Below, in pieces: positions 14,527 through 38,606 of a DNA stretch of 64,000 nt; the stretch's first letter is position 1; every line of letters starts with the position of its first letter. The stretch covers positions 1 to 64,000 of IMG/VR virus record IMGVR_UViG_3300043015_002491. One strand, 5' to 3'. The notes under the pieces are model-generated. The model did not search any database, was not told the DNA's origin, and saw nothing but the letters and a program-made list of their open reading frames with translations. The position numbers were made by a program, and so were the translations under genes. Origin of the DNA: a virus.

Positions 14527-14598
14527 TTCCCCCAGGGAATTTCGAAATCCCGACCCCTCCGTTAAAAGCGGAGTGCTCTGCCTCTGAGCTATGAGGGA
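14527..14598 (-). tRNA. tRNA-Lys(TTT)
   Basis: cloverleaf; anticodon arm CTCCG-CTTTTAA-CGGAG. Confidence 0.92.
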
Positions 14599-14626
14599 AT
14601 AAAATGCCTCTCTCGGCATCCGTCAC

Positions 14627-14730
14627 AACATTTTGTATTCTGTTAACCTATCTGAACTCTAAGACTCATTCGTCTTTTACAGACATGGACATCCATTATC
14701 AAGTTCGGGTCCTAACGGTAAAATCTTGTT
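14627..14730 (-). ncRNA. candidate 6S-like RNA
   Basis: rod-like pairing GTTA/TAAC, ACC/GGT, GAACT/AGTTC around an open centre; between tRNA genes. Confidence 0.4.
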
Positions 14731-14743
14731 AAAAACCAGTATG

Positions 14744-14824
14744 AGCGGGTAGTCAGAATCGAACTGACATCGCTGCATTGGAAGTGCAGTATAATACGCT
14801 TTCGCTCCGTTATACGATACCCGC
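14744..14824 (-). tRNA. tRNA-Gly(TCC) with expanded D-loop
   Basis: loop CTTCCAA; D-loop contains extra AGCGAAAGCG. Confidence 0.85.
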
Positions 14825-14829
14825 AATTG

Positions 14830-14903
14830 AGCCCACCACCAGAATCGAACTGGTATCTACGGTTTACAAGACCGTTGTAATAAAGCCGTTATACTAGGTG
14901 GGC
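14830..14903 (-). tRNA. tRNA-Thr(TGT)
   Basis: ACGGT-CTTGTAA-ACCGT. Confidence 0.9.
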
Positions 14904-14910
14904 TTATTAG

Positions 14911-14995
14911 TGGGAGCCGCTGGAATCGAACCAGCACCTATACAGGGCTACAGTTTTACAGACTGCCTCAACCAACCAATAGTTGACTCACTCCC
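14911..14995 (-). tRNA. tRNA-Tyr(GTA), divergent copy
   Basis: loop CTGTAAA; long variable arm; imperfect base of acceptor stem. Confidence 0.75.
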
Positions 14996-15046
14996 AAATT
15001 GACTTTTTACCTTATCCAAACGTAAGCTTAAAGTCTAACAGCGTAG

Positions 15047-15129
15047 TGGGCCTGGTAGGATTCGAACCTACACGCTCCGAAGAGACCAGATTTACAGTCT
15101 GGCGAGCCAACCAATTGCTCAACAGACCC
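15047..15129 (-). tRNA. tRNA-Tyr(GTA)
   Basis: CCAGA-CTGTAAA-TCTGG; long variable arm. Confidence 0.92.
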
Positions 15130-15134
15130 AAATA

Positions 15135-15191
15135 CAGAATGCGCTTTTATATTTACCCAAAAAATAGTTTAAATTTTGCTGAATGCATTCT
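15135..15191 (-). ncRNA. CAGCAA-family small RNA with Pro(TGG) anticodon stem-loop
   Basis: AGAATGC-ATTCAGCAA...TATTT-TTTGGGT-AAATA...GCATTCTG. Confidence 0.7.
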
Positions 15192-15195
15192 TTAG

Positions 15196-15269
15196 CTACC
15201 CAGGGAGGCCTCGAACCTCCAAATTCCACATTCAAAGTGTGGTGACTTTGCCAATTTGTCTACTGGGCA
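15196..15269 (-). tRNA. tRNA-Gln(TTG)
   Basis: CCACA-CTTTGAA-TGTGG. Confidence 0.88.
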
Positions 15270-15323
15270 ATAATGATTTTTTGTATCCTTTACCAAGAAA
15301 GCTTAAAATCTAACAGCATTATG

Positions 15324-15419
15324 TCTGGGGAATGGGATTCGAACCCATGGCAGACACTACCCTTGTGCCCGCACCACGTCCCAAGCGTGGCCACTTCAAC
15401 CTTACTCGTGCATCCCCAG
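15324..15419 (-). tRNA. tRNA-Pro(TGG) with 8-bp variable arm
   Basis: CCACG-CTTGGGA-CGTGG; variable stem GCGGGCAC/GTGTCTGC. Confidence 0.8.
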
Positions 15420-15430
15420 TTTAATTATAG

Positions 15431-15505
15431 TCGGATAGACTGGACTCGAACCAGCACAATGTCCTCATCCCAAATGAGGCGAGATACCAATTTCTCTACT
15501 ACCCG
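15431..15505 (-). tRNA. tRNA-Pro(TGG)
   Basis: CTCA-TTTGGGA-TGAG. Confidence 0.9.
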
Positions 15506-15568
15506 ATTAATTCTCAATACGTCAATGAACATTCTGATTATTTAATCTCTATCAGAAAAAAAGAGCAT

Positions 15569-15602
15569 AAAAAAACCCGTCTCAGTTTTCCTGGACGGGT
15601 TT
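15569..15602 (-). terminator. attenuator terminator of tRNA operon 1
   Basis: AAACCCGTCCAG-GAAAA-CTGAGACGGG-T7; 5' arm complementary to GGCGGGTTT (15664-15672) in the leader ORF. Confidence 0.85.
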
Positions 15603-15626
15603 CTATATCTTTTGAACCTTATGTGA

Positions 15627-15734
15627 TTACAATGTAGTTAAATCACTTTCAGTTAAACATAGCAAACCCGCCACACTCGGCTTCCCGCCTTGCGTATACT
15701 GTTTCGGTTGATATGTCGTAACTGTTAAGTTCAT
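15627..15734 (-). CDS. leader peptide 1 (MNLTVTTYQPKQYTQGGKPSVAGLLCLTESDLTTL)
   Basis: 35 aa ORF between promoter and terminator; codons 6-19 all T/Y/Q/P/K/G. Confidence 0.85.
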   Translation of the reverse strand: MNLTVTTYQPKQYTQGGKPSVAGLLCLTESDLTTL

Positions 15735-15784
15735 TTTTTCTATTTTTTAAATTATTAAATTTGTTCGTTTAATTTATATATATG

Positions 15785-15816
15785 CAAATATATGGTAAAA
15801 GTTTCAATTTGTCAAG
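15785..15816 (-). promoter_or_regulatory. Bacteroidota-type sigma-A promoter, tRNA operon 1
   Basis: CTTGAC...GAAACTTT...TATATTTG (-33/-7 TAnnTTTG); near-identical at four loci. Confidence 0.8.
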
Positions 15817-15870
15817 TATTTTTCAAAATATTTTTAAACTTTTTTATATGTGCTTGATAATCAAGTATTT

Positions 15871-16269
15871 TTATAAATTATTTTTATCCCTAGCTTTTAT
15901 CTCATCCCTAATCTTAGCTGCATCTTCATATCTTTCTTCTTCAATAGCGATTGCAAGTCTATCTTCTAGAGATATTTTCTTTTTAGTTTTAGGTGTGAAG
16001 CCAGTATCAAGTGGTGAATGAATCATTTCAACCTTAACTATTGAACCATGTTCTGTTTCCCAAACACTTCTTTTGAATTTATAACCATTCTCTTCAAATT
16101 CAGTAACTTCATTAGGTTCACCTAATTCACTTTCATATGGATTAGTAGTGTCATCATTTAATTCACTAAAGTCATTTAACTTATTTATTAAATCTCTCAT
16201 ACCTTTTAAGGGGTCATTTGATTTCTTCCCAAAGAAGTCATCAAATAAATCATCAAAATCATTAAACAT
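15871..16269 (-). CDS. UVR (UvrB/C) domain protein
   Basis: C-terminal LAIAIEEERYEDAAKIRDEI; likely start MFNDFDD. Confidence 0.7.
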   Translation of the reverse strand: MFNDFDDLFDDFFGKKSNDPLKGMRDLINKLNDFSELNDDTTNPYESELGEPNEVTEFEENGYKFKRSVWETEHGSIVKVEMIHSPLDTGFTPKTKKKISLEDRLAIAIEEERYEDAAKIRDEIKARDKNNL

Positions 16270-16952
16270 AATATTATTTTTTATTTTTGTTATACGATTA
16301 ATTGTACAAAATAGATACCATTTATTTTTTTCTGCCAATATGTCTGTATCTATATCTAATAGATGTCAAAAGATACCTAAATGGATTAATTTTAAGTAAA
16401 TAGAAATATAGTCCAAATAATGAAACTGATAATAGGTAAAAAATAGAAGTGGTAATTACATAGGAATCTCCTGTCGCTTTTAAAACCATGTAAAAAAGGG
16501 CATCGTACCCTAATGGGTTCATAAACATCGCCATCATTAGAACGATTGTGGCTATTTTCTTTCTGTTTACTACCCTCATCATCCATATTGTTTAAACTTT
16601 GTGTTACCATATTATTAAAATAAGCTAGTTTGATTTGGAAGCATGTTCTTCCAATATTCAAGCTGCTCATCAAGCTTCTTAATCTTTTTGTTAATAGAAG
16701 CCCTTTCTCTTACTAATTGCTTTCTAGCTTCAGTAAGTTCTCTTAATTTATTGTTAATATCGTCTTGACTGATTGTATTATTCTCAGCTAAGATGTTTAA
16801 CTTTTCTTTAATCTTCTTTTTCATATTATATAAATATGAGCATCTTGGTTTAAATACAAAAAAGTTAAGGCCAGTGGCTACCATTCTAGATGGAGTTCGG
16901 AGATTACTATTTCACACTTAGGACCCTAAGACCTTAACCTTTATATTATTAG

Positions 16953-17022
16953 TAGTACTGCTGGGATTCGAACCCAGGTCTCCCCCTCAACGGGAGCGTC
17001 TTGACCGCTACACCACAGTACG
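16953..17022 (-). tRNA. atypical tRNA-like gene (loop GTTGAGG, nominal TGA)
   Basis: T arm CTGGG-TTCGAAT-CCCAG and acceptor GTACTG/CAGTAC; non-canonical anticodon loop. Confidence 0.55.
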
Positions 17023-17107
17023 ACTCTAAGGGAGCGACCCCTAGAGTAAGGAATGTTAGATACTAAGCTTTGGGAGCGACCCATCGCATCATACCCACTA
17101 CCCCTAG

Positions 17108-17232
17108 TCGGAAGGGCTAGATTCGAACTAGCATCAAGTGGTTCCCATAGCTTTTAAATTGCTGAACTTAACCTTTTAAAACAGATTAATCTTTTTGCAT
17201 TACCACCGCCTCACCAGTTGGGCTACCTTCCG
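17108..17232 (-). ncRNA. tRNA body with anticodon loop replaced by ~60-nt CAGCAA module
   Basis: acceptor CGGAAGG/CCTTCCG, D and T arms intact; GTGGT/ACCAC stem encloses TTAATCTG-TTTTAAA-AGGTTAAGTTCAGCAA. Confidence 0.7.
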
Positions 17233-17277
17233 TTTAAAAGGAAGTGTTGTTAAAACGTTTTACCGCACCATTAATAT

Positions 17278-17340
17278 CAGAGTGACTTTTACGTAAATCA
17301 AATTAAAAGTTTGAGCGTTAAAAATTGCTGAAATCACTCT
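17278..17340 (-). ncRNA. CAGCAA-family small RNA with Lys(TTT) anticodon stem-loop
   Basis: AGAGTGA-TTTCAGCAA...TCAAA-CTTTTAA-TTTGA...TCACTCTG. Confidence 0.7.
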
Positions 17341-17364
17341 TTATATTCCTAATATTTTTGATAT

Positions 17365-17482
17365 CAGAATGGGACTTAATACGTGCTCTACCAATTGAGC
17401 TACTTGCCCAGAAGGACAAGGCTGGACTCGAACCAACAACAACGAGCTTAACAGGCTAAAATTTAATTGCTGTAGCCATTCT
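17365..17482 (-). ncRNA. CAGCAA-family RNA with circularly permuted tRNA(Asn)-like module (YrlA-like)
   Basis: AGAATGG-CTACAGCAA, AGC-CTGTTAA-GCT, T arm, acceptor closed by loop (CTTGTCC-TTCT-GGGCAAG), D arm, CCATTCTG. Confidence 0.8.
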
Positions 17483-17746
17483 TTATATATCTTATCTAAT
17501 CTCTCAAAGAACTATGGTACAAACTTACAACTTATTTTTTAATTATGCAAGTTTTTTTTTTATTTTTTTTTAAGATTTTTATTACCCTTTGTATGGATAG
17601 GGTCAAAAGGGCAATGCCTACAACCACTCCCACAACATATAGACCTACGTTTTAAGTAGGATTCTGTATATATTATTTTGCCATTCTCTAAATAATAATC
17701 TTTACCTTCTTCAAATCTAAAATCACTCATATTAATTAATATTTAG

Positions 17747-17819
17747 TGGAGCCACCGATACTCGAAATCGGAACTGCTGGTTGCAAACCAACTATTATCA
17801 CCACTTTAACTATGGCCCC
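17747..17819 (-). tRNA. tRNA-Ala(TGC)
   Basis: loop TTTGCAA; GGGGCCA/TGGCTCC with G3:U70. Confidence 0.88.
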
Positions 17820-17953
17820 AGTTTTGTTAGATTTCGTACCGTTATCACACTTCAGTACAAGTCACTTTCAATTTATCTAACACACTTCCTATGCTGGCTA
17901 ACTGGGTTATTTAAGCGAAATACGCCCCCAGCGCCTTTATGTGACACCGTTAG

Positions 17954-18030
17954 CGGTCTAGGAGGGTTTCGAACCCTCGTTTTAGAGCAGAGACAGTGCA
18001 ATTCCCCCCACCATGGGGGCTTACTAGACC
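17954..18030 (-). tRNA. tRNA-Asp(GTC), divergent copy
   Basis: loop CTGTCTC; acceptor GGTCTAG/CTAGACC; unusual D arm. Confidence 0.65.
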
Positions 18031-18085
18031 GTGCACTAACTAAGGGGGATGATTAAGCCCCAATCAATTGTCGTAGTTAGTAAAG

Positions 18086-18158
18086 CGGACGTGACGGGAG
18101 TTGAACCCGCTCCGAACTGCGTGACAGGCAGACATCTTAACCGTTTGACCTCACGTCC
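18086..18158 (-). tRNA. tRNA-Asp(GTC)
   Basis: CTGC-CTGTCAC-GCAG. Confidence 0.85.
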
Positions 18159-18232
18159 GTAATTGATAGTCTTTCCTATCAGTCATACTCAAAACTCCCA
18201 CTGGTCGTAACTCCAGTTATAGAGAGCGTTTG

Positions 18233-18317
18233 TAATGCGGACGGGGTTCGAACCCGCAATACCCAAGAGGGTCCAGATTGAAAGTCTGGTCGCTTAAACC
18301 AATTTGCATACCGCATC
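18233..18317 (-). tRNA. tRNA-Glu(TTC) with long variable arm
   Basis: CCAGA-CTTTCAA-TCTGG; variable arm ACCC-TCTT-GGGT. Confidence 0.8.
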
Positions 18318-18322
18318 ATATG

Positions 18323-18396
18323 TAACCCAGACGGGGCTCGAACCCGCAATCTCCACAGTGAAAGTGTGACGACTTAACCAGTTTGTCCACTGGGTC
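18323..18396 (-). tRNA. tRNA-Glu(TTC)
   Basis: CACA-CTTTCAC-TGTG. Confidence 0.88.
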
Positions 18397-18431
18397 AAAT
18401 TAAACCAAAATGTCAAAGAACTATTCTTTTG

Positions 18432-18503
18432 TGCGACCCCTCAGATTCGAACTGAGACCTCCTGGGCTTCAACCAGGCGAGCTACCATTAACTCCAGAGC
18501 CAC
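18432..18503 (-). tRNA. tRNA-Phe(GAA)
   Basis: CCTGG-TTGAAGC-CCAGG. Confidence 0.85.
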
Positions 18504-18513
18504 ATATGGGCAT

Positions 18514-18544
18514 AAAAAAAGGCCCTCCGTTTCGGGAGAGCCTT
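18514..18544 (-). terminator. attenuator terminator of tRNA operon 2
   Basis: AAGGCTCTCCCG-AAA-CGGAGGGCC-T7; 5' arm complementary to GGGAGAGTC (18594-18602) in the leader ORF. Confidence 0.85.
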
Positions 18545-18574
18545 CTTATCTAAGCTTTTATGTTTTTATAACAT

Positions 18575-18667
18575 TTAACTTATGACAATACTTGACTCTC
18601 CCAGGCTAAAATCGGCCTCAGCAAACGCTTCAAAAGCAAAATCAAATATGTTGTTAAATGTTCTCAT
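18575..18667 (-). CDS. leader peptide 2 (MRTFNNIFDFAFEAFAEADFSLGESSIVIS)
   Basis: 30 aa ORF; codons 8-20 all F/D/A/E. Confidence 0.85.
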   Translation of the reverse strand: MRTFNNIFDFAFEAFAEADFSLGESSIVIS

Positions 18668-18716
18668 TATTTCTATTTTTTAAATATTAAATTTTTTTGT
18701 TTTAATTATATATATG

Positions 18717-18748
18717 CAAATATAGGTCTAAAGTTTCAAAAAAGCAAG
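18717..18748 (-). promoter_or_regulatory. sigma-A promoter, tRNA operon 2
   Basis: CTTGC...GAAACTTT...TATATTTG. Confidence 0.8.
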
Positions 18749-18793
18749 TATTTTTACAAATTATTTTTAAAATTTTTTTTAATTACTTCATTA

Positions 18794-19738
18794 TCAACGA
18801 TTTAATTTTTTTACTCCTCTACCAAATAATTCAGATTCTTTTTCTCTTCTAGATTTTAGACCTGGATGTTTCTCAAATGATTTTTCACTAGTAGTCTTTA
18901 TTTTTTCTTTAGCCTTTTCATATTCACCCCTTTTAACTAATTGTATAAAGTCAGAGTTTCTAAAACCACTTCTACCCATATTAAAAGCCATAGATACCAT
19001 AGCATCATACATATCTTGGTTGATTGTATATTTAATACCTTTCTTGTCCCAACGTGATAAAACATCATTAATAACCTTTTCAGCATAAGCTAAATCATTT
19101 TTAAATAACTCTTCAGCAGTTTCTCTAGAAATTACTTGACCTAATTTAAACTTAGACCTTCTAATTTTTTCAGCATGCCCCCAACCAATTGTGATTGCAC
19201 CATCACCAAGTTTATAAGCTTTAAGTACTGGTTCACCCTTATGTTTTATACTACCTTCTTCATACTTAAGGTGATTTATTAAATTTTGTGATGCTTTAGT
19301 AGGTTTAGCTACTCTATTGTCTAATTCTTTATTAACTTGATTTTCTTTTTCACTACTAACTCTTTTAACTGGCGTTGAAGTTTCTATTGATGTTAATATA
19401 TCTTGTTTTATATCTGGCGCATTAGCACTTAATAACGAACTAACCGTGTTTAATGATAATAAACCCATTAAACTAATACTCACATATTTTACCATTTTTT
19501 TTCTAAACCCAGATGGGATATTTTTGGTCTTATTTAATAAAACTTCTAAGAATCTTTCACCTTGTGTTGGTGAATGAATGGTTGACATGGTTTTTTCAAG
19601 TTGATTTTTTGTTAAATCCCATTCAAATGTTCTAGACTCTTCTTCGTTTTCACATATTAGTATTAAATCATTTAAACTATTTTCAAATAACCTAGTTTCT
19701 AATTCTTCTCTTAACAAATTTTCTATTAGATGTTTCAT
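18794..19738 (-). CDS. phage lysozyme (GH24) with N-terminal extension
   Basis: EEG..AYK.GDGAITIGWGH, DAMVSMAFNMG and GLKSRREKESELF; likely start MKHLIENLLRE. Confidence 0.88.
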   Translation of the reverse strand: MKHLIENLLREELETRLFENSLNDLILICENEEESRTFEWDLTKNQLEKTMSTIHSPTQGERFLEVLLNKTKNIPSGFRKKMVKYVSISLMGLLSLNTVSSLLSANAPDIKQDILTSIETSTPVKRVSSEKENQVNKELDNRVAKPTKASQNLINHLKYEEGSIKHKGEPVLKAYKLGDGAITIGWGHAEKIRRSKFKLGQVISRETAEELFKNDLAYAEKVINDVLSRWDKKGIKYTINQDMYDAMVSMAFNMGRSGFRNSDFIQLVKRGEYEKAKEKIKTTSEKSFEKHPGLKSRREKESELFGRGVKKLNR

Positions 19739-19792
19739 ATTATATAAATATAACCCAACCATTCAAAAATTGTATAGTACCTTAATTTTTAG

Positions 19793-19874
19793 TGACCCTG
19801 GTGAGACTCGAACTCACACGCCTTTCGGCAGAGGCTTCTTAGACCCCCCTGTATACCAATTCCAGCACAGAGCC
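19793..19874 (-). tRNA. tRNA-Leu(AAG)
   Basis: GGGGT-CTAAGAA-GCCTC; Leu-type D loop and variable arm. Confidence 0.8.
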
Positions 19875-19879
19875 ATAAA

Positions 19880-19963
19880 CAGGTTGAGTTTTACGGGATT
19901 GAACCGCTTCGTTTTGTTTTGCAGACAAAATTTTAACCATTTAAAGTTTGCTGTACTCAACCT
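19880..19963 (-). ncRNA. CAGCAA-family RNA with Cys(GCA) anticodon arm and T-arm remnant
   Basis: AGGTTGAG-TACAGCAA...TTTGT-CTGCAAA-ACAAA..GCGG-TTCAATC-CCGT..CTCAACCTG. Confidence 0.75.
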
Positions 19964-19967
19964 TTAG

Positions 19968-20056
19968 TACGGAGGGCGGGATTCGAACCCGCAGATGTAT
20001 CTTACGTGTGCCGTGGGGTCTAAGCCCACCGACTTTACCAGTTTGTCCACCTCCGC
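19968..20056 (-). tRNA. tRNA-Leu(TAG)
   Basis: GTGGG-CTTAGAC-CCCAC; long variable arm. Confidence 0.82.
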
Positions 20057-20061
20057 ATTTG

Positions 20062-20144
20062 TACTCCCGCCCAGACTCGAACTGGGATTTACTTCACGTC
20101 TCTTCCATGTAAAAGAAGGATGTTACCAATTACACCACAGGAGC
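20062..20144 (-). tRNA. tRNA-Val(TAC), variant with expanded variable region
   Basis: loop TTTACAT. Confidence 0.7.
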
Positions 20145-20150
20145 ATTTTG

Positions 20151-20240
20151 TAGCGGGAGCTGGATTCGAACCAGCGAAATCAGATTCACTCTGCCTCTGG
20201 GTTATGAGCCCAGCGAGCCGACCAACTGCTCTACCCCGCA
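20151..20240 (-). tRNA. tRNA-Met(CAT), initiator-like, long variable arm
   Basis: CTGGG-CTCATAA-CCCAG (three G-C pairs); 1:72 mismatch. Confidence 0.8.
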
Positions 20241-20247
20241 ATATTAG

Positions 20248-20438
20248 TTGCCACGGTAGGAATCGAACCTACTGCCTCTCCCCTATGAACGGGAGCGAGC
20301 TTTGAACAAATTTAACAAACTCCAAACTATTCATGTTTAACCAGAAGTCCCCTTAACATGTGTCGGTTATTCCATATTAAACAATCCAAGCCCTTTTAAA
20401 ATTAAACCTTGGCATGTTCTCCAATGCTCTACGTGACT
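20248..20438 (-). tRNA. tRNA-like gene (CAT) with >100-nt insertion in the D-loop
   Basis: acceptor GTCACG/CGTGGC; D stem GAGC/GCTC separated by a long insert; intact T arm. Confidence 0.6.
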
Positions 20439-20449
20439 AAGTTTAGCCG

Positions 20450-20535
20450 TAGCCAGAGTGGGACTCGAACCCACACGCCCCTTTCGGAGCAAGGGATTTT
20501 AAGTCCCTCGTGTCTACCAATTCCACCATCTGGCC
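20450..20535 (-). tRNA. tRNA-Leu(TAA)
   Basis: AGGGA-CTTAAAA-TCCCT. Confidence 0.92.
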
Positions 20536-20559
20536 ATATTTTCAAAGAACACTTTGTTG

Positions 20560-20635
20560 TTGGGATAGAGGGATTCGAACCCCCGACCTTCTCGGTGTAA
20601 ACGAGACGCTACTGAACCAACTGAGCTATATCCCA
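20560..20635 (-). tRNA. tRNA-Val(TAC)
   Basis: CTCG-TTTACAC-CGAG. Confidence 0.9.
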
Positions 20636-21398
20636 ATGTGCTAGGTTTTACCCTAGCTTTATAAATCTTTCATTTTTGATGGCTTTACTTATCCATCTTG
20701 CTAATTCAGAACCTCTGATTTTAGCATCAAATGTAGTTGTACCTAAATCTGAAGATAACTTTAGCGTTTGTATTTCTTCTCTTTCAAACGAATCAGTTTC
20801 AATTACTTCTTCAACTGTTGCTATTGGGAATTGATATAATTCGTCCATAATCACAACATTGTAATATAAATTACCAGCAATATAGTGACTAAATGTAGCC
20901 ATATTCTTAGACTTCATTAAGTCTTTTTTTATTTCTATTTCATTAAACATAACCATTCTCTTTTTTCCATTTTTCATGCATCATATTAATCGTATGGTAA
21001 GGACTTCCTTTACCTTCAATAATTTCTTCGAACCCATTTTCTTTAGTAATAAGAGATTCTCCATATTCAATAGTACCCTTAAATTTACTACCATAACTAC
21101 TAGATTGAAGTGTTTTTGTTGCTGGGTCTACATCACCCCAAGAACTTCTCCATCCTCTAGGTTTAAGATACTCAATAAAATATTGTTTACCTGTTTCTGG
21201 ATAAAATACCACTTCTCTTCCAGTTTCATCTCTGTTCACTAAGAACTCTTGCCTACTAATTGTTTTCATTTTTTCTTTTTTAAAAACCTTGTTATTATCA
21301 TTAACCAATTAACATTATTTTTTTGTCCCTTAGTTAATCTTTCTCTTGTTCCTTCTAAATTACCTCTTAAAATTTCTTTTACCATTTTATTTTTTTAG

Positions 21399-21469
21399 AG
21401 GCGGGAGAGGGAATCGAACCCCCGTAAAAGCTTTTGCAGAGCTCCACCTAACCACTCGGTCATCCCGCC
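21399..21469 (-). tRNA. tRNA-Cys(GCA)
   Basis: AGCT-CTGCAAA-AGCT; U73. Confidence 0.88.
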
Positions 21470-21485
21470 ATTAATTTTTAAACAT

Positions 21486-21519
21486 AAAAAAAGTCCGACT
21501 CGTTTTACTGAATCGGACT
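21486..21519 (-). terminator. attenuator terminator of tRNA operon 3
   Basis: AGTCCGATTC-AGTAAAAC-GAGTCGGAC-T7; 5' arm complementary to GGTCGGACT (21560-21568). Confidence 0.85.
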
Positions 21520-21545
21520 CTCTGTTTATCTTATTTTTATTCAAG

Positions 21546-21626
21546 TTAAGACACAACACAGTCCGACCAGTTTACCACTAGTAAACATAAGTTAAGGACT
21601 AATAATATGTTGTTTCTTGTAATCAT
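21546..21626 (-). CDS. leader peptide 3 (MITRNNILLVLNLCLLVVNWSDCVVS)
   Basis: 26 aa ORF; 10 of codons 8-18 are L/V/C. Confidence 0.82.
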   Translation of the reverse strand: MITRNNILLVLNLCLLVVNWSDCVVS

Positions 21627-21656
21627 TGAATTTTTCTTTGTTTTTAAATATATATG

Positions 21657-21688
21657 CAAAGTTACTATAAAAGTTTCAATTTGTCAAG
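21657..21688 (-). promoter_or_regulatory. sigma-A promoter, tRNA operon 3
   Basis: CTTGAC...GAAACTTT...TAACTTTG. Confidence 0.8.
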
Positions 21689-21723
21689 TATTTTTATAAA
21701 AAAGTTTTATTTTTTTTTGTAAT

Positions 21724-22431
21724 TTAAGAATACCTCATCTTAATTATTCTAGCTATTATGTTGAATAGCTGTTCTTTAGACCTACCTTCACGTCTTTTTA
21801 AAAAGTCATTAATTAAGTCAGAAATTCTCTTTTCTTTTTCTCTTCCCATCTGATATTTGTATGATATTACATCGAAAAGACTCATAAAATAATATCCATT
21901 AAGTTCGGTAGCCCTATCAAGTATTGTATCACTATCATCCACCTTAGTATCTGTATAATCACCGCCAGCTCTTTGTGGAGCCCATTCGTCAAACGCTTCA
22001 ATGTCCATTTGAGTTAAACCTAATTCATTTGGTCTGTAAATACCCTTCTCATAATTAGAGATAAATTTATCCATATCAACCTTACCGTTTAGGTTTGATT
22101 TTAAAATTTCCCAATTTTCTTTATTAGGTACTACCACATCTAAGTCACCTGGCTCTAATGGTATTTCTTTACCACCAAATTGTTCAGAAATCTTATTAAT
22201 AAATTCTGGTAAACCATCATACATATAAAGTCTTGCAGAACCAGATATAAAGTATTTTTTATCAGATGGTTTTATACCAAATGCTTTAAATAATACGTTA
22301 TCAGATTCTTTAATTAACCTCATTAATTTATTATTAGCCTCATCAAGTATCATCGTTTCTTGTAATGCTTTTTCCAAATTAGTCCAAGCATCTCTAATCA
22401 TCATTTCTTCATATAAGTTAGATAACTTCAT
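21724..22431 (-). CDS. putative nucleotidyltransferase-fold protein
   Basis: ISGSARL...GDLDVVV (GS...DxD). Confidence 0.5.
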   Translation of the reverse strand: MKLSNLYEEMMIRDAWTNLEKALQETMILDEANNKLMRLIKESDNVLFKAFGIKPSDKKYFISGSARLYMYDGLPEFINKISEQFGGKEIPLEPGDLDVVVPNKENWEILKSNLNGKVDMDKFISNYEKGIYRPNELGLTQMDIEAFDEWAPQRAGGDYTDTKVDDSDTILDRATELNGYYFMSLFDVISYKYQMGREKEKRISDLINDFLKRREGRSKEQLFNIIARIIKMRYS

Positions 22432-22820: not shown

Positions 22821-23144
22821 ATGGGATTTATTTATTTAATTACTGATTGGTCTTCGAACCCGACACGTTATAAGGTGGGTATCACTAAGAATAATGTTGA
22901 AAGTAGATTAAAGCAGTTGCAGACAGGTTCAAGTGGTGAATTAGTGTTACTTAAAACATACGAATCAGAACACTATCGTAAAATAGAAGGTATTCTCCAT
23001 CGTGGTTATAAAACCTACTCTACCGATGGTGGTAAAGAATGGTTTGAATTACCAGATGAAACAGCCCTAAACTTTTTAAATGAATGTGAGCAGATTGATA
23101 ATAATATCAAAATGCTCAAGGATAGTGGTAACCCTTTTATTTAA
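22821..23144 (+). CDS. GIY-YIG / T5orf172-like nuclease
   Basis: GFIYLI...YKVGIT...RLKQLQTG...EWF. Confidence 0.85.
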   Translation: MGFIYLITDWSSNPTRYKVGITKNNVESRLKQLQTGSSGELVLLKTYESEHYRKIEGILHRGYKTYSTDGGKEWFELPDETALNFLNECEQIDNNIKMLKDSGNPFI

Positions 23145-25648: not shown

Positions 25649-25672
25649 ACAAATATAAAAATAAAAAAACTA

Positions 25673-26131: not shown

Positions 26132-26132
26132 A

Positions 26133-30770: not shown

Positions 30771-30802
30771 ACTTATTTTTTATTAATCAATAATATTTTA
30801 CA

Positions 30803-31129: not shown

Positions 31130-31178
31130 AATCTTTAATTTTTAACAAATATACATAATATTTCCCAACAATACAAAT

Positions 31179-32251: not shown

Positions 32252-32354
32252 TTCTTTTTTTATTTAACGAATCTCCTTCGATTATTAAACCATCTGGTCC
32301 ATCACTTAATCTCATTAATTTAATGTTTTAAGGGGGTACAATACCCCCCTGGTT

Positions 32355-33470
32355 TTACAATACGTTATACAACTTCTTATTGTCGTAATTCATCATATAC
32401 TCTCTTACACTTTCTACCTTACCATCGTTTAATCCGAAGAATAAACCTGTGTAAGCCTTGTGTGTCTTACCAGCAACTCTGAATACTTCCATTGCATATC
32501 TTTTCTTTTCCTTTGGAGTTATGTTCTTTGGTCTTAAGCCTTTCAACTCACCCCACATACCTTCCAACTCACCTATAAGGTTATTGTAACCCTCGTGAAG
32601 CTTAAATATTTCTTCTCTTCTTTCTGGGAAAGTAGCGGAAAATTCCTCAATCTCATTAGACTTAACAACATCCATTATATTGTGTTCAGCTAATTTCCCC
32701 TTCAAATGATGAACTGCCACATATGCTGGATTCTTTATCTTGATTCTATTGTGGTTTGCATCCACAACAACATAACCTTCCTCTGTGAATGGCATACCTT
32801 CAAAAGTTCTCTTGATAGCACCAACATTGTCAACATTCATGTCAAAAGCCTTAACTAATGGCACACCTATTGATATTGCGGTCATTTCAAGGTCTTTCCA
32901 AGATAACTCCTTAAGAGTCTTTCTATTTCTTACTGTCAAAAGGGAAACCTTAGATTCTCCGTGTGGAGTAACCACTATATTATATGGGGTCATTAACTCA
33001 AATACATATACATGGTCCTTATCCAACAAACAATCATTGAATGAATACTTGTTGTTTAGTGTATTCCAGAATAATTCATTGAAAGTAGTACCTAACTTGT
33101 TGTTTACTTCACCTTCCCCTTCAGCGGTTCCAGTTGTAGCTGCGAACCACTCTTTCTTATTCCAATCCCAGTATACTTGAATCATAGACCCATCTTCCTT
33201 AGTCAACACCTTAGCTGTATCCCAGTCAATTTTAGCAGCGTGACCTTCTTCAGCGTTGAAGAACTTGAAGAAAGATAAAGACATGATTTCCCAAGTATTC
33301 TTTTCAAGTATAAGCCCTCTGCACTCTTGCACAATAACCTCACCCATAGATGATTCTATTTGGTCATACTTGATAAGAACCTTGTCCTCATATTCCCTAG
33401 ACTTTAATTTAAAGTCAGTAAGCGTCTTAGCAAGTCCATTTTCTTTTATGTATTCTATTACTCTTAACAT
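32355..33470 (-). CDS. RNA ligase, T4 Rnl1-like
   Basis: ECRGLIL, KFFN, KEDGS (motif I), FEL, EGYVV and RIKIKN. Confidence 0.9.
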   Translation of the reverse strand: MLRVIEYIKENGLAKTLTDFKLKSREYEDKVLIKYDQIESSMGEVIVQECRGLILEKNTWEIMSLSFFKFFNAEEGHAAKIDWDTAKVLTKEDGSMIQVYWDWNKKEWFAATTGTAEGEGEVNNKLGTTFNELFWNTLNNKYSFNDCLLDKDHVYVFELMTPYNIVVTPHGESKVSLLTVRNRKTLKELSWKDLEMTAISIGVPLVKAFDMNVDNVGAIKRTFEGMPFTEEGYVVVDANHNRIKIKNPAYVAVHHLKGKLAEHNIMDVVKSNEIEEFSATFPERREEIFKLHEGYNNLIGELEGMWGELKGLRPKNITPKEKKRYAMEVFRVAGKTHKAYTGLFFGLNDGKVESVREYMMNYDNKKLYNVL

Positions 33471-34013: not shown

Positions 34014-34970
34014 TTAACCAAGTTTTTCTTCAGAAACTTTTCCAGAAAGATTTGGTCCATCTTCCCATTTACCCCAATACTTAATATCATTAGACATAAC
34101 TGGTTTACCACCCTTAGCTCTATTAACGGCTATTGTAATGTGTGGTTTTTCATTATCCGAATAATAACCCTCAACACCAACAGCTAAAGCCATATCAGAC
34201 ATACCAATACTAACAACCCTTAAGTTTACGGTCTTACCTAAGTCACCCTTAAGGTTTTCTGGTAACCCATTACCGAAGTTAATTGTCATGTGATGAGCAA
34301 TTATTTCCCAATCACCCCAAACATCACTTATTTTACTTCTAACCGCCTCTAGTAATTTAGTTCTAGATTTTTCATCCAATACAACACTTGCAAACATCTT
34401 TGGTTTATTTGAATACATAGGTTTTGCTTTAATAACTTTTTCAAGTGAAAGTGGTCCAACACTCTTATGAGATTGAATCATTGATTTAATTTTATCCAAT
34501 GGTACACCATGTGTATTCCTTTGCGCTAACTCTTCAGCAGAAAGACCGCCAGCACCTATATCAACAAATTTAATATTTTCATCAGCATAACCCATGTTTA
34601 ATGCTGCTTCAACATAATTCTTTGGTTCGTTAGCCTTGATGTTGGTATTGTCAACTATAACTGGTGACACACCCTTTTCCATAGCTTCCTTAGCCATCTT
34701 AAAGTTAAGTGAGTGCATCTTACTAAGTGGTGTGAAATCCTTATTAGAAATCATGTTTGAAAAGAATTCGTTATAATCACCTTGTGCTTCGATTCTGTCA
34801 TCAGTCGAGAATATGGCACCACCACCCTTAAGTTCTTTTGCTTTAGTCGATTTACCACTACCTGGTATCCCTCTCATCACAATAAGTTCTTGTTCTGGTT
34901 TTGACACTGTAACACCTAACGAGTTTTTCTCAACATTTTCTCTAAGTATTTTTCTTATATTTTCTTTCAT
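34014..34970 (-). CDS. polynucleotide kinase / 2H cyclic phosphodiesterase fusion (RNA end-healing)
   Basis: P-loop RGIPGSGKST, VDNTN and RNTHGVP; C-terminal HHMTI and PHITI. Confidence 0.85.
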   Translation of the reverse strand: MKENIRKILRENVEKNSLGVTVSKPEQELIVMRGIPGSGKSTKAKELKGGGAIFSTDDRIEAQGDYNEFFSNMISNKDFTPLSKMHSLNFKMAKEAMEKGVSPVIVDNTNIKANEPKNYVEAALNMGYADENIKFVDIGAGGLSAEELAQRNTHGVPLDKIKSMIQSHKSVGPLSLEKVIKAKPMYSNKPKMFASVVLDEKSRTKLLEAVRSKISDVWGDWEIIAHHMTINFGNGLPENLKGDLGKTVNLRVVSIGMSDMALAVGVEGYYSDNEKPHITIAVNRAKGGKPVMSNDIKYWGKWEDGPNLSGKVSEEKLG

Positions 34971-36789
34971 ACTAAAAATTCTTTAAATTTATTTTTCAAT
35001 TCTACCTCTGTTAAGTAAGTTTCAAGTTTTACCTTAGTTTCGTAATTTTCATTTTCACGCTCTAAAATATCATATGATACAATATCTTGTGGGAACTTAT
35101 GGCGTAATTCAATAAAGTGTTTAACACTTAACTCATAACCCTTAATTTCTTTACCTTCTTGATTAGTTCTATAATAAATAATACTATTTAAATAAATTGA
35201 CCTAATGGCATCTAACTCTTCATCTAACATAATATCTAATATCTCATCTATGGACATATTTAACCCTAAATATCTTAGAACCATATTTTTAATTTCATTA
35301 GGGATTGTTGAGAATGCTAGTGTTTCAATATCATATATTTTATGTAATCCAGCATCTTCCAATTCAAATCTTAATTCACTAGAATCTATGGTAACCCCTA
35401 TGAAGTTATCATCATCATAAAAAATATGGAAATCAAATAAGTCTAACGATGGTAAATAACCATCATCAGACAAAGGAATGTGTGTTACTATAATATTCTT
35501 AACGTTTATCATGTAACAAATATAATAAAAAAAATGAAACCTACAATGAAAAAATTAAATTATTTTCTTTTTTTTCTAGATTCTTCTAATAATTCTTCAG
35601 CTGTATCACTTAAATGTTTAGGCATAACACTAATTAAATCCATCTTCTCATCATCATTAGCATTCTTAAAAACACTTAACATGATGTCATCACTAGGTAA
35701 TTCATTAAAAATATCCGCAAGTTCTATTGGTTCCCCATTATCAGTTTCAAATCTATTACTAGTTTGATAAAAATGTACCTTCTCACCATTAGATAATTTC
35801 ATCTTTTTAAAAGATTCTTTCTTTTCTTTAGCTCCAACATTTTTTTCTTTAGACCATCTTCGTAACCCATCAATTGTTATAGGTCTTTTTTCAGTACCGT
35901 AATCACCACTATTAACAAATTCAATTAACTTTTCATATGGAATAACATAATCGTATTGACCTTTAACTATATGTTTCCAAAATAAAGTTGTGATGACATT
36001 ATCCTTAACCACTAACACTAGTAAATGACCTGGTAGGTCATTATTTGGTTTTATTGGTTCTTTAGAGTCATATATAATAATACCCAAGTCTCTACCAAAA
36101 GAATCACCAAATTCTAAGCTTTCAATAAAATCAATCCTTTCATCAATTATTTTTTTACCTTCATCACCTATTTGGTCTAGTAAAGCAGTAATCCTTTCTG
36201 GATACCTTTGTTTAACAAAATGCTTTATATCCTTTATCGCTTCTAATAATCTTTGTCTAATAAATTCTTTCATTACTCACCTTTTAATATTTGTTTAAAC
36301 TTTCTAAGTTGTTCTTTTATTACGTTTTTAGCTTTAAAACTAGGACCCTTTTTGTTTATCGGTACTTTCACAGTTTTGGGTGACTTATCACCACCATTAA
36401 CATTAATAGTATATTTTCTATTATCCTTAAAGGTAATTTCGTTAAATTCTTTATCCAACTGATTTATTTCCATCTTAAGCTTAGGACCATCAGCTGAGAT
36501 AATTCTATGTATTTGAACATCCCCTAGATATTCACCTTGTATAATATGATTTAACTCGGCTTCTTTTCTTTTTTGTTTACCCGCAGAAACCCAGTCATTT
36601 CTAATACCAATAACCTCACAATCACCACCTACAGTAGCACTCATAAGGTCATCATTGTACTGTCCACCAGACTTTCCACATTCACATTTTCTCCATTTGG
36701 TGTGAATTAGTCTAACTACGTCATCACAATTTTTACAGATAATTAACTTCATATTATATAAATATATTGAAACACGCAAAAAGATGAAG

Positions 36790-36879
36790 CGGAAGACAAG
36801 GGAATTGAACCCTCGGACCGCTCAAGGCGGCCAACGCATTAGCAGTGCGCCCCGACTAACCAACATTCGGCTATCTTCC
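36790..36879 (-). tRNA. tRNA-Ser(GCT)
   Basis: CGCA-CTGCTAA-TGCG; long variable arm; G73. Confidence 0.88.
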
Positions 36880-36884
36880 AAGTA

Positions 36885-36951
36885 CAGGATGGTTTTTTTA
36901 CGTAATCAAATTAGAAGTTTGGTCGTTAAAAATATTTGCTGAACCCATCCT
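36885..36951 (-). ncRNA. CAGCAA-family small RNA with Arg(TCT) anticodon stem-loop
   Basis: AGGATGG-GTTCAGCAA...CAAA-CTTCTAA-TTTG...CCATCCTG. Confidence 0.7.
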
Positions 36952-36955
36952 TTAG

Positions 36956-37028
36956 TACCCCTACAGGGATTCGAACCCCGATTCTCGGCTTAGAAGGCCG
37001 ATGTCCTATCCAATTGAACGATAGAGGC
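36956..37028 (-). tRNA. tRNA-Arg(TCT)
   Basis: TCGGC-CTTCTAA-GCCGA. Confidence 0.9.
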
Positions 37029-37133
37029 ATTTTGGTGAGAGGCTTTGGGTTAGATAAACCTCAATATTACATGAGAGACCCCCTAGAATGCATCACCATT
37101 GTGTGAGAACGTCTAAACGTTCCCGACTTTTAG

Positions 37134-37208
37134 TACACCTAGAAAGAATCGAACTTTCAATCTCTCAGTTCGTAGCCGAGTGCTTTAAATCCGTTAAGCT
37201 ATAGGTGT
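37134..37208 (-). tRNA. tRNA-Arg(ACG)
   Basis: CTCGG-CTACGAA-CTGAG. Confidence 0.88.
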
Positions 37209-37216
37209 ATATTAAG

Positions 37217-37286
37217 TACCGACTGTGAGGTTCGAACTCACTTAACCGTCCATATGAAGGACTGTTCTTTTCCACTAAGTGTCGGC
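37217..37286 (-). tRNA. short tRNA-Met(CAT)-like with reduced D arm
   Basis: GTCC-TTCATAT-GGAC; T arm present. Confidence 0.6.
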
Positions 37287-37317
37287 ATGTCGCTACTATT
37301 CGACCTATCAATATTTG

Positions 37318-37389
37318 CTCCTTGGGGGAATTTCGAAATCCCGACCTATCGCTTAACAGGCGATTGCTCTACCTCTGAGCTACCAAGGA
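37318..37389 (-). tRNA. tRNA-Asn(GTT)
   Basis: ATCGC-CTGTTAA-GCGAT. Confidence 0.9.
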
Positions 37390-37446
37390 ATAATTGTTTA
37401 TAGTTGGCCAAAACTAGTAAATAAATTAACTTTTGGCTGATTATAG

Positions 37447-37519
37447 TGGGCCCACTGAGACTCGAACTCAGAACAACTGATTATGAGTCAGCCGTTTTAA
37501 CCACTTAAACTACAGGCCC
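37447..37519 (-). tRNA. tRNA-Ile2/Met(CAT)
   Basis: CTGA-CTCATAA-TCAG; GGGCCTG acceptor resembles Ile2. Confidence 0.82.
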
Positions 37520-37523
37520 TTTG

Positions 37524-37613
37524 TACTGGTGGTGAGATTCGAACTCACGTTTGGTAACAACCTCAAGAACCGCTACGTTTCTCCAAGATATAAGCTTGGG
37601 ACGCTACACCAGC
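37524..37613 (-). ncRNA. tRNA-like RNA with Ile(TAT) anticodon hairpin displaced into the D-arm position
   Basis: acceptor GCTGGTG/CACCAGT; T arm GTGAG-TTCGAAT-CTCAC; CCAAG-CTTATAT-CTTGG inside the GCGT/ACGT stem. Confidence 0.55.
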
Positions 37614-37692
37614 ATTTGTAGAGTAGGTGGGGTATTCTCCCACAATAAAGGGTCATAGTCCAGCGGTTTGTAGTTTGAACCTACTATTCTAG

Positions 37693-37778
37693 TTGGTAGG
37701 GTGGGACTCGAACCCACATTGTGCTTTCGCACCCAGTGTATCAGACTGGTCCCTGTAAACCAATTCGGGTACCTACCA
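37693..37778 (-). tRNA. tRNA-Ile(GAT) with long variable arm
   Basis: CCAGT-CTGATAC-ACTGG; variable arm GTGC-GAAA-GCAC. Confidence 0.8.
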
Positions 37779-37785
37779 ATATTAA

Positions 37786-37875
37786 TGGCGGAGAGAGTGG
37801 GACTCGAACCCACACACCTCTAGGGCCTACGGTTTTCAAGACCGTTGCAGTTAGACCTACTCTGCTTACCTCTCC
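37786..37875 (-). tRNA. tRNA-Ser(TGA)
   Basis: ACGGT-CTTGAAA-ACCGT; CCA encoded. Confidence 0.9.
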
Positions 37876-37884
37876 GAATAAAGT

Positions 37885-37969
37885 ACCCCATTGTAGGATT
37901 CGAACCTACGGTCCCCTAAAGGGACACCCGTTACACACGGGTCGCATTAAGCCACTCTGCCAAATGGGT
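37885..37969 (-). tRNA. Ser-like tRNA body with anticodon loop TGTGTAA
   Basis: GGCAGAGTGGCTTAATGCG D arm and long variable arm; ACCCG-TGTGTAA-CGGGT (G33). Confidence 0.6.
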
Positions 37970-37976
37970 CACTTTG

Positions 37977-38049
37977 CACTGCGTTAGAGAATCGAACTCT
38001 ATCCATCCGAGGTTTTGGAGACCTGGCGCATACCATTATGCTACGCAGT
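37977..38049 (-). tRNA. tRNA-Trp(CCA)
   Basis: AGGT-CTCCAAA-ACCT. Confidence 0.85.
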
Positions 38050-38127
38050 ATGTGTTTCAATACGTCAAAGAACATATCGGTTTAAAAGCCGATATTATCA
38101 ATTATCTGTTATTAATCAGATAACCTT

Positions 38128-38203
38128 TGGGGTGCACGAGGAATTTCGAAATCCCGACCTTCCGAATCACAGTCGGATGCTCTGCCTCTGAGCTACGTAC
38201 ACC
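38128..38203 (-). tRNA. tRNA-His(GTG)
   Basis: TCCGA-CTGTGAT-TCGGA; G-1, C73 and CCA encoded. Confidence 0.92.
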
Positions 38204-38388
38204 ATATTTAAAGAACTACGAAGAATACAACCTTTCCCCTTTCTTTTTTTATTTTTATTTCACCATTATAGCCTCCGTCTTCAGCTTTCTTTTTATACTT
38301 GTCGTAGATGGTATCAAAGTCTTTCTTAACTTCTTTTTCTTTTTCTACCCCAAGTTTTCTAACTCTCTCTTCCATAATAATCGGACAT

Positions 38389-38422
38389 AAAAAAAGCCCG
38401 ACCAGTTTCCGAGTCGAGCTTT
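38389..38422 (-). terminator. attenuator terminator of tRNA operon 4
   Basis: AAAGCTCGACTCGG-AAA-CTGGTCGGGC-T7; 5' arm complementary to GAGTCGAGT (38471-38479). Confidence 0.85.
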
Positions 38423-38455
38423 ATATTATTTTAGTTTTTTTATTTACATCACAAC

Positions 38456-38539
38456 TTAAATAATGGACATACTCGACTCATTTAGAGAATTACGTCTCCA
38501 ATTACTAATCGAATTTCTATGTATGTTCATTGTTCTCAT
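38456..38539 (-). CDS. leader peptide 4 (MRTMNIHRNSISNWRRNSLNESSMSII)
   Basis: 27 aa ORF; codons 4-18 all M/N/I/H/R/S/W. Confidence 0.85.
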   Translation of the reverse strand: MRTMNIHRNSISNWRRNSLNESSMSII

Positions 38540-38574
38540 TGTTATAAAATTTTCTTTGTTTTTAAATATATATG

Positions 38575-38606
38575 CAAATATATGATAAAAGTTTCAATTT
38601 GGCAAG
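38575..38606 (-). promoter_or_regulatory. sigma-A promoter, tRNA operon 4
   Basis: CTTGCC...GAAACTTT...TATATTTG. Confidence 0.8.

Follow-up and report, generated by a model that had tools for sequence, protein, structure and literature searches.

Candidate codon-matched leader-peptide attenuators ahead of four transfer RNA operons in a jumbo-phage genome fragment

Background

Why should four transfer RNA (tRNA) arrays of one phage each stand behind a promoter of their own, an intrinsic terminator and a short open reading frame (ORF) whose codons call for the very tRNAs encoded downstream? The question is raised by the first 64 kilobases (kb) of the 122,509-base IMG/VR virus record IMGVR_UViG_3300043015_002491, a stretch to which we refer, at its whole length, as the window. 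The completeness of the record is rated at ~35%, which makes the DNA one part of a jumbo-phage genome. The tRNA genes of phages are commonly regarded as constitutive helpers in codon usage or as spares against anticodon nucleases, and the control of their expression is little understood.

Here we describe the four leaders of the window, the fit between their control codons and the arrays, the predicted competition between terminator and antiterminator, and the counterparts of these elements in related phages. We consider it likely, judging from the sequences, that every unit works by ribosome-mediated attenuation of transcription, as in the trp/his/thr/ilv operons, but stands ahead of a tRNA operon and feeds back on tRNA supply, and the phage probably makes a given block of tRNAs only when the codons of that block are decoded slowly. 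An earlier note on this DNA had proposed the logic of trp/his/ilv attenuation, and the proposal is supported both by the way in which leaders follow their arrays and by the coincidence of the predicted stall window with the control run.

Results

Four units of one design on the minus strand

All 31 tRNA genes that ARAGORN calls in the record, as well as its transfer-messenger RNA (tmRNA), fall inside the window on the minus strand, and Rfam reports 27 tRNAs at its gathering score, among them an additional, weakly scoring one at 14750-14819. Four units share one design, consisting of a promoter, a leader ORF of 26-35 amino acids (aa), an intrinsic terminator and a tRNA array (Table 1). Each begins with TTG, 20 nucleotides (nt) and TAnnTTTG in an AT-rich stretch, followed 38-58 nt on by the ATG of the leader, then by the rest of the ORF, a GC-rich hairpin that begins 25-34 nt past the stop codon and has a run of seven T residues (T7) behind it, and the tRNAs. 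The stop codon of the leader lies 21-34 nt before the terminator arm, and the hairpins, with predicted energies of -14.3 to -16.7 kcal/mol, lie 8-185 nt ahead of the first tRNA, the distance of 185 nt belonging to array 4, where an ORF of 55 aa occupies the interval.

The composite promoter TTGAAACTTT-N9-TTTGCATATATAT has four matches in the window at up to three mismatches, each of them upstream of a leader; the whole record likewise yields four matches, all at these units, and none for the backwards control. Bacteroidota promoters follow the consensus TTG-N17-23-TAnnTTTG, and by this consensus the promoters point to Bacteroidota hosts. The 22 terminator-like sites of the record were screened blindly for an ORF of 14-60 aa that ends at most 60 nt ahead of the terminator and contains a significant complement to its arm, and the four units alone satisfied the screen. 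The four copies of the promoter, ORF, hairpin and tRNA design that the earlier note described are present at the places it gave, and their promoter motif is found nowhere else in the record. Exact matches to the promoter in other viral contigs were limited to three stretches, none with tRNAs, a leader or a promoter context, and we regard them as chance matches. All four terminator T runs lead straight into an ATG (TTTTTTTATG).

Control codons and array content in the window

The isotype sets of the arrays were derived from ARAGORN and Rfam, with no use of the leaders. Measured by these sets, no frame of the six in the whole record offers a longer run of the respective array's amino acids than TTYQPKQYTQGGKP, FDFAFEAFAEADF and MNIHRNSISNWRRNS, the control runs of units 1, 2 and 4; the background fractions of the three sets are 0.32, 0.237 and 0.293 respectively. 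For the third set the top rank goes to a longer Cys/Leu/Val run at 51670-51720 on the minus strand, which was rejected as a leader, having no start codon and lying in a stop-ridden frame. A four-by-four matrix of z-scores for leader composition against array set has its best values on the diagonal in all four rows and all four columns.

The correspondence extends from amino acids to isoacceptors. Leader 4 contains AGA and CGT for two Arg tRNAs as well as TCN and AGT for two Ser tRNAs, while leader 3 contains TTA, CTA and CTT for three Leu tRNAs, and over the window 25 of the 26 array anticodons are covered by a codon of their leader, where synonymous resampling leads one to expect 22.5 (P 0.033). 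One array member is only a weak hit, a tRNA-Gly at ~14745-14825, with the anticodon UCC by our own reading, which is missed by ARAGORN, reaches 30.7 bits in Rfam where the cut-off is 29, and has an enlarged, odd D-arm; relatives carry an ordinary Gly (UCC) at the matching position of the array.

Predicted alternative pairing of leader and terminator

In all four leaders the best complement of the terminator 5' arm anywhere between the ATG and that arm consists of codons 20-24/25, which bears out the claim that a segment just after the control codons is complementary to the terminator. The energies given by RNAduplex for these antiterminators are -15.0, -13.7, -13.5 and -16.4 kcal/mol in units 1-4, and were equalled by 5, 6, 0 and 0 of 500 shuffles respectively. 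The four stem sequences differ, and in a four-by-four matrix the cognate pair of antiterminator and terminator is the best in every row and every column. Since the stems differ and each antiterminator fits its own terminator alone, the four paralogues provide covariation for the alternative pairing.

We modelled co-transcriptional folding with the 3' arm of the terminator not yet made and the ribosome masked at a given A-site codon. In this model, 8-12 of the 11-13 arm nucleotides are sequestered in all four leaders for A-site positions from codon 4 to ~16-18, and the arm is free once the ribosome has moved beyond ~codon 18-20. The range of stall positions that frees the antiterminator in the model coincides with the control runs, which extend from codons 4/8 to 18-20.

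Leaders follow their arrays in related phages

Relatives of the locus had to be sought through individual genes. Comparison of positions 14400-21800 with phage records by blastn gave no close relative, and the 322 matching records do so at single tRNA genes only (at most 2% coverage). The lysozyme-like gene retrieved 16 loci at 37-54% identity, just two of which have tRNAs, one tRNA-Ala each; there is no leader upstream of the tRNA-Ala in L009 and no array in L011, and five records of these relatives hold one tRNA in total, which neither helps nor contradicts the proposal. With the GP88-like gene as query no relatives were found. A search with the RlaP-like gene, located 1.5 kb upstream of leader 3, gave 46 viral loci that are 39-74% identical, and 32 of these have tRNAs in their flanks. 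In 31 of the 32 the first tRNA is Cys, with Val and Leu after it, and a script detected an ATG-initiated leader rich in Cys, Val and Leu, with a terminator, ahead of 29 of the 31. In L027 a Cys/Val/Leu leader that starts with GTG was read by eye, and the script output for L058 is identical to that for L027. A Phe/Glu/Asp/Ala leader is likewise present at 18 of the 19 Phe arrays of relatives.

For a wider comparison the tRNA regions were taken from seven larger relatives (G006-G012) and searched together with the window by a pipeline that detects terminator, short ORF and tRNA, which returned 33 units in the eight genomes; two of these, L073+ at 11877 and L093+ at 3642, look like false positives and are retained in all counts of 33. 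Of the 33 leaders, 26 have a TAnnTTTG box in the 130 nt ahead of them, where 1.8 would be expected. Seventeen of the 33 units have a significant antiterminator complement (at most 10 of 200 shuffles as good), and where found it lies just past the control run.

In the related jumbo phages G006-G009, with genomes of 288-369 kb of which three are rated complete, the tRNAs fall into the four isotype groups of the window, and each group is headed by the corresponding leader class. G010, G011 and G012 are more distant, with RlaP 39-55% identical; they divide their tRNAs among arrays in another way, and the leaders are altered to match. In G010 the leader TTGTTTTTKTGKGK heads an array of Thr/Lys/Gly tRNAs, ADCADE one of Asp/Cys/Glu/Ala, LSLSLSLSLSLS one of Leu/Ser, NNNNQQQYQQNNY one of Asn/Gln/Tyr, PQFQFVVPF one of Pro/Phe/Val, HIHKHQIWH one of Trp/His and RIIRIRRR one of Ile/Arg; G011 has QQQQQQ ahead of four Gln tRNAs, and G012 adds six further pairings, such as YYYEVE with Glu/Tyr. 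The codons of the G010 Leu/Ser leader (TTG, TTA, CTA, TCA, TCG, TCC and AGT) answer to all six isoacceptors of its array.

When leaders were permuted against arrays within each genome, the observed score was reached by 1/24 permutations in the window, in G006 and in G007, by 1/6 in G008, 1/2 in G009, 1/5040 in G010, 2/6 in G011 and 1/720 in G012, the true pairing being the unique best of the 24, 5040 and 720 arrangements in the window, G010 and G012. The earlier note had staked its reading in advance on homologous leaders tracking the tRNA content of their arrays, and they do so in G006-G010 and G012. Nearly every array isotype has a codon in its leader. A readable leader codon exists for 158 of 170 array anticodons, compared with 146.9 +/- 3.3 under synonymous resampling (P 0.0005), although orthologous units are not independent samples and pooled P values are for that reason inflated; for four non-redundant partitions the figure is 82 of 91 against 75.9 expected (P 0.009).

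The manner in which the leaders vary is also informative. Among 11 distinct Phe/Glu/Asp/Ala leaders, 120 of the 121 cells at codons 8-18 remain inside the set while undergoing D/E, A/D and E/A exchanges and synonymous changes, and codons 19-29 vary freely as protein. Between G006 and G007 a serine codon has switched box (AGC/TCG) with serine retained. Because membership of the set is kept while residues are swapped and flanks drift, selection appears to act on which tRNAs are called and not on the peptide.

Discussion

The proposed switch and the points against it

Taken together with the folding model, the anatomy of the units suggests the following sequence of events. Transcription would start from the Bacteroidota-type promoter private to the unit, and the short ORF would be the first part made, its codons ~4-19 being almost wholly those that the downstream tRNAs are predicted to read and its codons 20-25 forming a complement to the 5' arm of the intrinsic terminator downstream. 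With prompt decoding, the translating ribosome would be covering codons 20-25 as RNA polymerase transcribes the terminator, so that the hairpin could form and the array would stay off. Should any one of the polled aminoacyl-tRNAs be scarce, the ribosome would stall within the run, leaving codons 20-25 free to capture the arm, and polymerase would read through into the array. As the tRNA product would relieve the stall, the unit would work by negative feedback and, as a gauge of the OR type, would monitor the supply of its own set of tRNAs. Translation of the leader and stalling as the signal that turns the array on are thus predicted from sequence features, and we infer that the scarcity sensed could come from host anticodon nucleases, from decay of host tRNAs in infection or from a mismatch in codon usage. 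Between arrays 3 and 4 lies a set of RNA-repair genes, comprising an RlaP-type nucleotidyltransferase, two RNA ligases and a kinase-like protein, which agrees with a setting of tRNA damage without proving it.

Several observations weigh against this account or limit it. The matching of control runs to the arrays downstream, as claimed in the earlier note, stands for runs 1, 2 and 4 and for the diagonal of the matrix, but the run of leader 3, LLVLNLCLLVV, holds one Asn codon, which array 3 does not serve. The earlier note's count of 20 amino acids over the four sets (6+4+3+7) also holds, subject to the weak Gly (UCC) and to two tRNAs called by ARAGORN that are exceptions to the tracking, namely array 3's extra, long Met (CAU) and array 4's odd "Thr" (UGU), the latter scoring 40.6 bits as a tRNA. 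Folding with and without an occluding ribosome, a check suggested at the outset, gives a divided answer: at equilibrium, with the full terminator and a masked stalled ribosome, leaders 1 and 2 go to the antiterminator, whereas leaders 3 and 4 retain the terminator, and for these two the antiterminator wins in the co-transcriptional model only. Among the relatives, 16 of the 33 automatically detected units have no significant antiterminator by the simple duplex test, including the Phe/Glu/Asp/Ala class of G007 and G008, and the permutation test is not significant in G011. A His tRNA occurs in the Phe/Glu/Asp/Ala arrays of L028, L029 and L032 and a Pro tRNA in the arrays of L027 and L058, in each case with a leader lacking the corresponding codon, while the Pro/Phe/Val leader of G010 contains Gln codons. 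Finally, the signal would be ambiguous, since amino-acid starvation would also stall the ribosome and extra tRNA cannot cure such starvation.

Other accounts of the same architecture have to be set against these results. The hairpins could be constitutive partial terminators or processing sites, with small ORFs that encode functional peptides or are not translated at all, and the conservation of the leader N-termini among classes (M-R/K-T-x-N-N-I) would suit a functional peptide. What is conserved, however, is the amino-acid set and not the order of the peptide, the part after the run is free as protein and yet complementary to a terminator that changes, and leader composition tracks the arrays, and we give such a non-regulatory origin very little credence. 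No more than this can be granted to a switch of reversed polarity, similar to that of pyrBI, in which a closely following ribosome suppresses the terminator, so that good decoding turns the array on and stalling turns it off. The end of the leader ORF does lie near the terminator, but a ribosome at the stop codon reaches ~12-15 nt downstream and the 21-34 nt found here exceed that reach; moreover, such a switch has no use for a cognate-specific antiterminator inside the ORF and would amount to positive feedback on tRNA supply without evident logic.

A general sensor of translation stress is perhaps a shade less improbable, though still decidedly unlikely. The leaders would then report any slowing of ribosomes, whether by antibiotics, by toxins acting on the ribosome or by global starvation, and their codons would be without isotype meaning. 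A stall anywhere in codons 4 to ~17 would indeed free the antiterminator, and a tRNA array of Anabaena is reported to be turned on by translational stress (PMC8421152, PMC10272220). This account leaves unexplained why leader composition follows array content across different partitions, why the set is conserved in the 120 cells of 121 and why coverage of isoacceptor codons exceeds the synonymous expectation. We regard a more far-reaching form of the attenuator reading as evenly balanced between true and false, namely that a clade of Bacteroidota jumbo phages possesses a modular tRNA homeostat that resolves isoacceptors, with each carried elongator tRNA behind a leader that polls its codons (with separate Leu, Ser and Arg boxes), such that the ribosome would detect when any one host tRNA is lost, as through the action of an anticodon nuclease, and the phage would respond by transcribing the matching set.

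Relation to known systems

Attenuators that sense more than one amino acid are known from enterobacteria, where the ilvGMEDA leader responds to Ile, Leu and Val and the thr leader to Thr and Ile, alongside trpL, hisL, leuL and pheL. The phage units resemble these enterobacterial attenuators, some of which sense more than one amino acid, in the short ORF with clustered regulatory codons, the intrinsic terminator, the mutually exclusive antiterminator and, as proposed, the dependence of the switch on stalling. In contrast, the phage units would regulate tRNAs rather than biosynthetic enzymes, their leaders would poll up to 7-8 amino acids and several isoacceptors each, and they are phage-encoded, in four copies that jointly cover all 20 amino acids. 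On sequence grounds the usual marks of an attenuator appear to be present, with a leader ORF bearing a codon cluster, an intrinsic terminator before the genes and a predicted alternative antiterminator pairing; the genes downstream do not make or charge the amino acids but are tRNAs. Rfam reports no leader family at gathering score for any of the four leaders and, for leaders 1-3, lists none at E up to 1, while leader 4 scores 22.8 bits with Thr_leader RF00506 (cut-off 55) and 20.4 bits with Trp_leader RF00513 (cut-off 41).

The pheST attenuator of E. coli, with its leader pheM, is a chromosomal element that responds to a single amino acid and targets a synthetase. It shares with the phage units the control of a component of the translation apparatus by a leader peptide, and differs from them in its synthetase target, its single amino acid and its chromosomal location. 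T-box riboswitches likewise report on tRNA status by transcription attenuation, but do so by direct binding of uncharged tRNA, without translation and with one tRNA per element, and no match to the T-box family is listed in the Rfam searches of the window. Phage tRNA sets are known to offset host anticodon nucleases, as in T4, where Pnkp and Rnl1 counter PrrC, and in the tRNAs of T5; the combination of phage tRNAs and RNA-repair genes is common to these systems and the present one, and we found no conditional, codon-matched control of such phage tRNA genes in print.

The nearest published conditional tRNA array that we found, as far as the available text of the sources goes, is the trn operon of Anabaena sp. 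PCC 7120, a long array under the control of the repressor TrcR (PMC8421152, PMC10272220). Like the phage arrays it consists of accessory tRNAs, and it is silent and induced when translation is impaired, an induction that for the phage units is only predicted; it differs in being governed by TrcR, and the terms "leader peptide" and "attenuat" are absent from the accessible portions of the two reports (PMC8421152, PMC10272220). A full-text literature search, with most subscription journals and supplements outside its reach, returned no account of leader-peptide control of tRNA genes, and the earlier note's statement that multi-codon attenuators on phage tRNA arrays had not been described met with no counterexample there.

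The control logic of these units is legible in the sequence, in that the ribosome would serve as the gauge, the tRNAs to be measured are spelled out by the control codons and the product of the array would replenish what is measured. If confirmed, this logic would carry leader-peptide attenuation beyond metabolism to the translation machinery itself and would account for the sorting of tRNAs into fixed isotype blocks in these phages. The leaders could also be used directly as orthogonal sensors that report how available a single tRNA is, and would give a handle on which host tRNAs become limiting in infection or defence. Should the homeostat exist as described, it would represent the first class of attenuators with a tRNA output and a new layer of sensing in phage counter-defence.

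Table 1. Coordinates of the four leader-array units and of other features in the window
Feature	Position	Strand	Remarks
Promoter, unit 1	15785..15821	-	TTG, 20-nt spacer, TATATTTG; -33/-7 type
Leader ORF 1, 35 aa	15627..15734	-	control run TTYQPKQYTQGGKP, codons 6-19
Antiterminator segment 1	15663..15676	-	leader codons 20-24; pairs with terminator 5' arm (predicted)
Attenuator terminator 1	15569..15601	-	hairpin, -16.7 kcal/mol, and T7
tRNA array 1	14526..15505	-	Pro, Pro (long), Gln, Tyr, Tyr, Thr, Gly (UCC, Rfam only, ~14745-14825), Lys
Promoter, unit 2	18717..18753	-	
Leader ORF 2, 30 aa	18575..18667	-	control run FDFAFEAFAEADF, codons 8-20
Antiterminator segment 2	18593..18602	-	codons 22-25
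Attenuator terminator 2	18514..18544	-	hairpin and T run
tRNA array 2	17746..18503	-	Phe, Glu, Glu (long), Asp, Ala
Promoter, unit 3	21657..21693	-	
Leader ORF 3, 26 aa	21546..21626	-	control run LLVLNLCLLVV, codons 8-18
Antiterminator segment 3	21557..21569	-	codons 20-24
Attenuator terminator 3	21486..21520	-	hairpin and T run
tRNA array 3	19792..21469	-	Cys, two ORFs (121, 109 aa), Val, Leu (UAA), Met-like (CAU, long), Val (long), Leu (UAG), Leu (AAG)
Promoter, unit 4	38575..38611	-	
Leader ORF 4, 27 aa	38456..38539	-	control run MNIHRNSISNWRRNS, codons 4-18
Antiterminator segment 4	38470..38480	-	codons 20-24
Attenuator terminator 4	38389..38421	-	hairpin and T run
tRNA array 4	36789..38202	-	His, Trp, odd long "Thr" (UGU), Ser (UGA), Ile (long), Met, Asn, Arg (ACG), Arg (UCU), Ser (GCU)
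Terminator T runs leading into ATG	15560-15570, 18505-18515, 21476-21487, 38384-38390	-	
RNA-repair gene	23137-24351	-	RlaP-type
RNA-repair gene	29712-30770	-	RNA ligase (PF09414)
RNA-repair gene	32355-33470	-	T4 Rnl1-like ligase (PF09511)
RNA-repair gene	34014-34970	-	AAA_33 kinase-like
Long tRNAs	15323-15419, 18232-18317, 20061-20144, 20150-20240, 37692-37778, 37883-37970	-	
ORF, 55 aa	38208-38375	-	between terminator 4 and array 4
ORF, 109 aa	20648-20977	-	tRNA-Cys to tRNA-Val
ORF, 121 aa	20943-21308	-	tRNA-Cys to tRNA-Val
Lysozyme-domain gene	19762-18794	-	
Short tRNA, Ser UGA anticodon	16953-17022	-	
Y RNA-like (YrlA) match	17382-17444	-	below threshold
"Pro (GGG) with intron"	17107-17232	-	ARAGORN, intron mode only
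tmRNA	52699-53070	-	
tRNA-Met (CAU)	50783-50856	-	
Nicotinamide phosphoribosyltransferase-like and NUDIX proteins	4655-6241, 6267-7289	-	
APS-kinase/HAD fusion	26133-27092		

Other features in and around the arrays

Several tRNAs of the arrays (Pro, Glu, Val, the Met-like CAU tRNA, Ile and the odd "Thr") reach 84-97 nt through an extra arm or insert, though their isotypes are normally short-armed, and most of them adjoin a copy of normal length with the same anticodon. The CAU tRNA of array 3 has, by our own reading, three G-C pairs in its anticodon stem and may therefore be initiator-like. The 55-, 109- and 121-aa ORFs lie inside the predicted read-through transcripts and have no Pfam or PHROG match. 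A lysozyme-domain gene begins 30 nt past the last tRNA of array 3, and since there is no terminator-like site between the two it may be co-transcribed with that array, the transcript ending at the attenuator of leader 2.

Downstream of array 2 the minus strand carries a match to a Y RNA-like element (YrlA) at 42.3 bits, against a threshold of 69, and a sequence that ARAGORN calls as an intron-containing Pro (GGG) tRNA, while 725 nt beyond the array there is a 68-nt tRNA that has a Ser anticodon, UGA, but no long arm. Neither the tmRNA (84.2 bits, with a tag ending in VAFA) nor a lone tRNA-Met (CAU) stands behind a leader-attenuator. Two genes for nicotinamide adenine dinucleotide (NAD) salvage and an APS-kinase/HAD fusion are also encoded in the window. 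Anticodons for stop codons occur among tRNAs of the relatives, with CUA (called Pyl) in G010 (L089, L090) and UCA tRNAs (called SeC) inside the Phe/Glu/Asp/Ala arrays of L025, L040 and L041, and these CUA and UCA tRNAs may be suppressors. At least half of the sequence words of the DNA were found in six sequencing-run rows, which are labelled estuary metagenome and one of which may be the source; two RNA runs contained just 0.14-0.15 of the words and have no bearing on expression.

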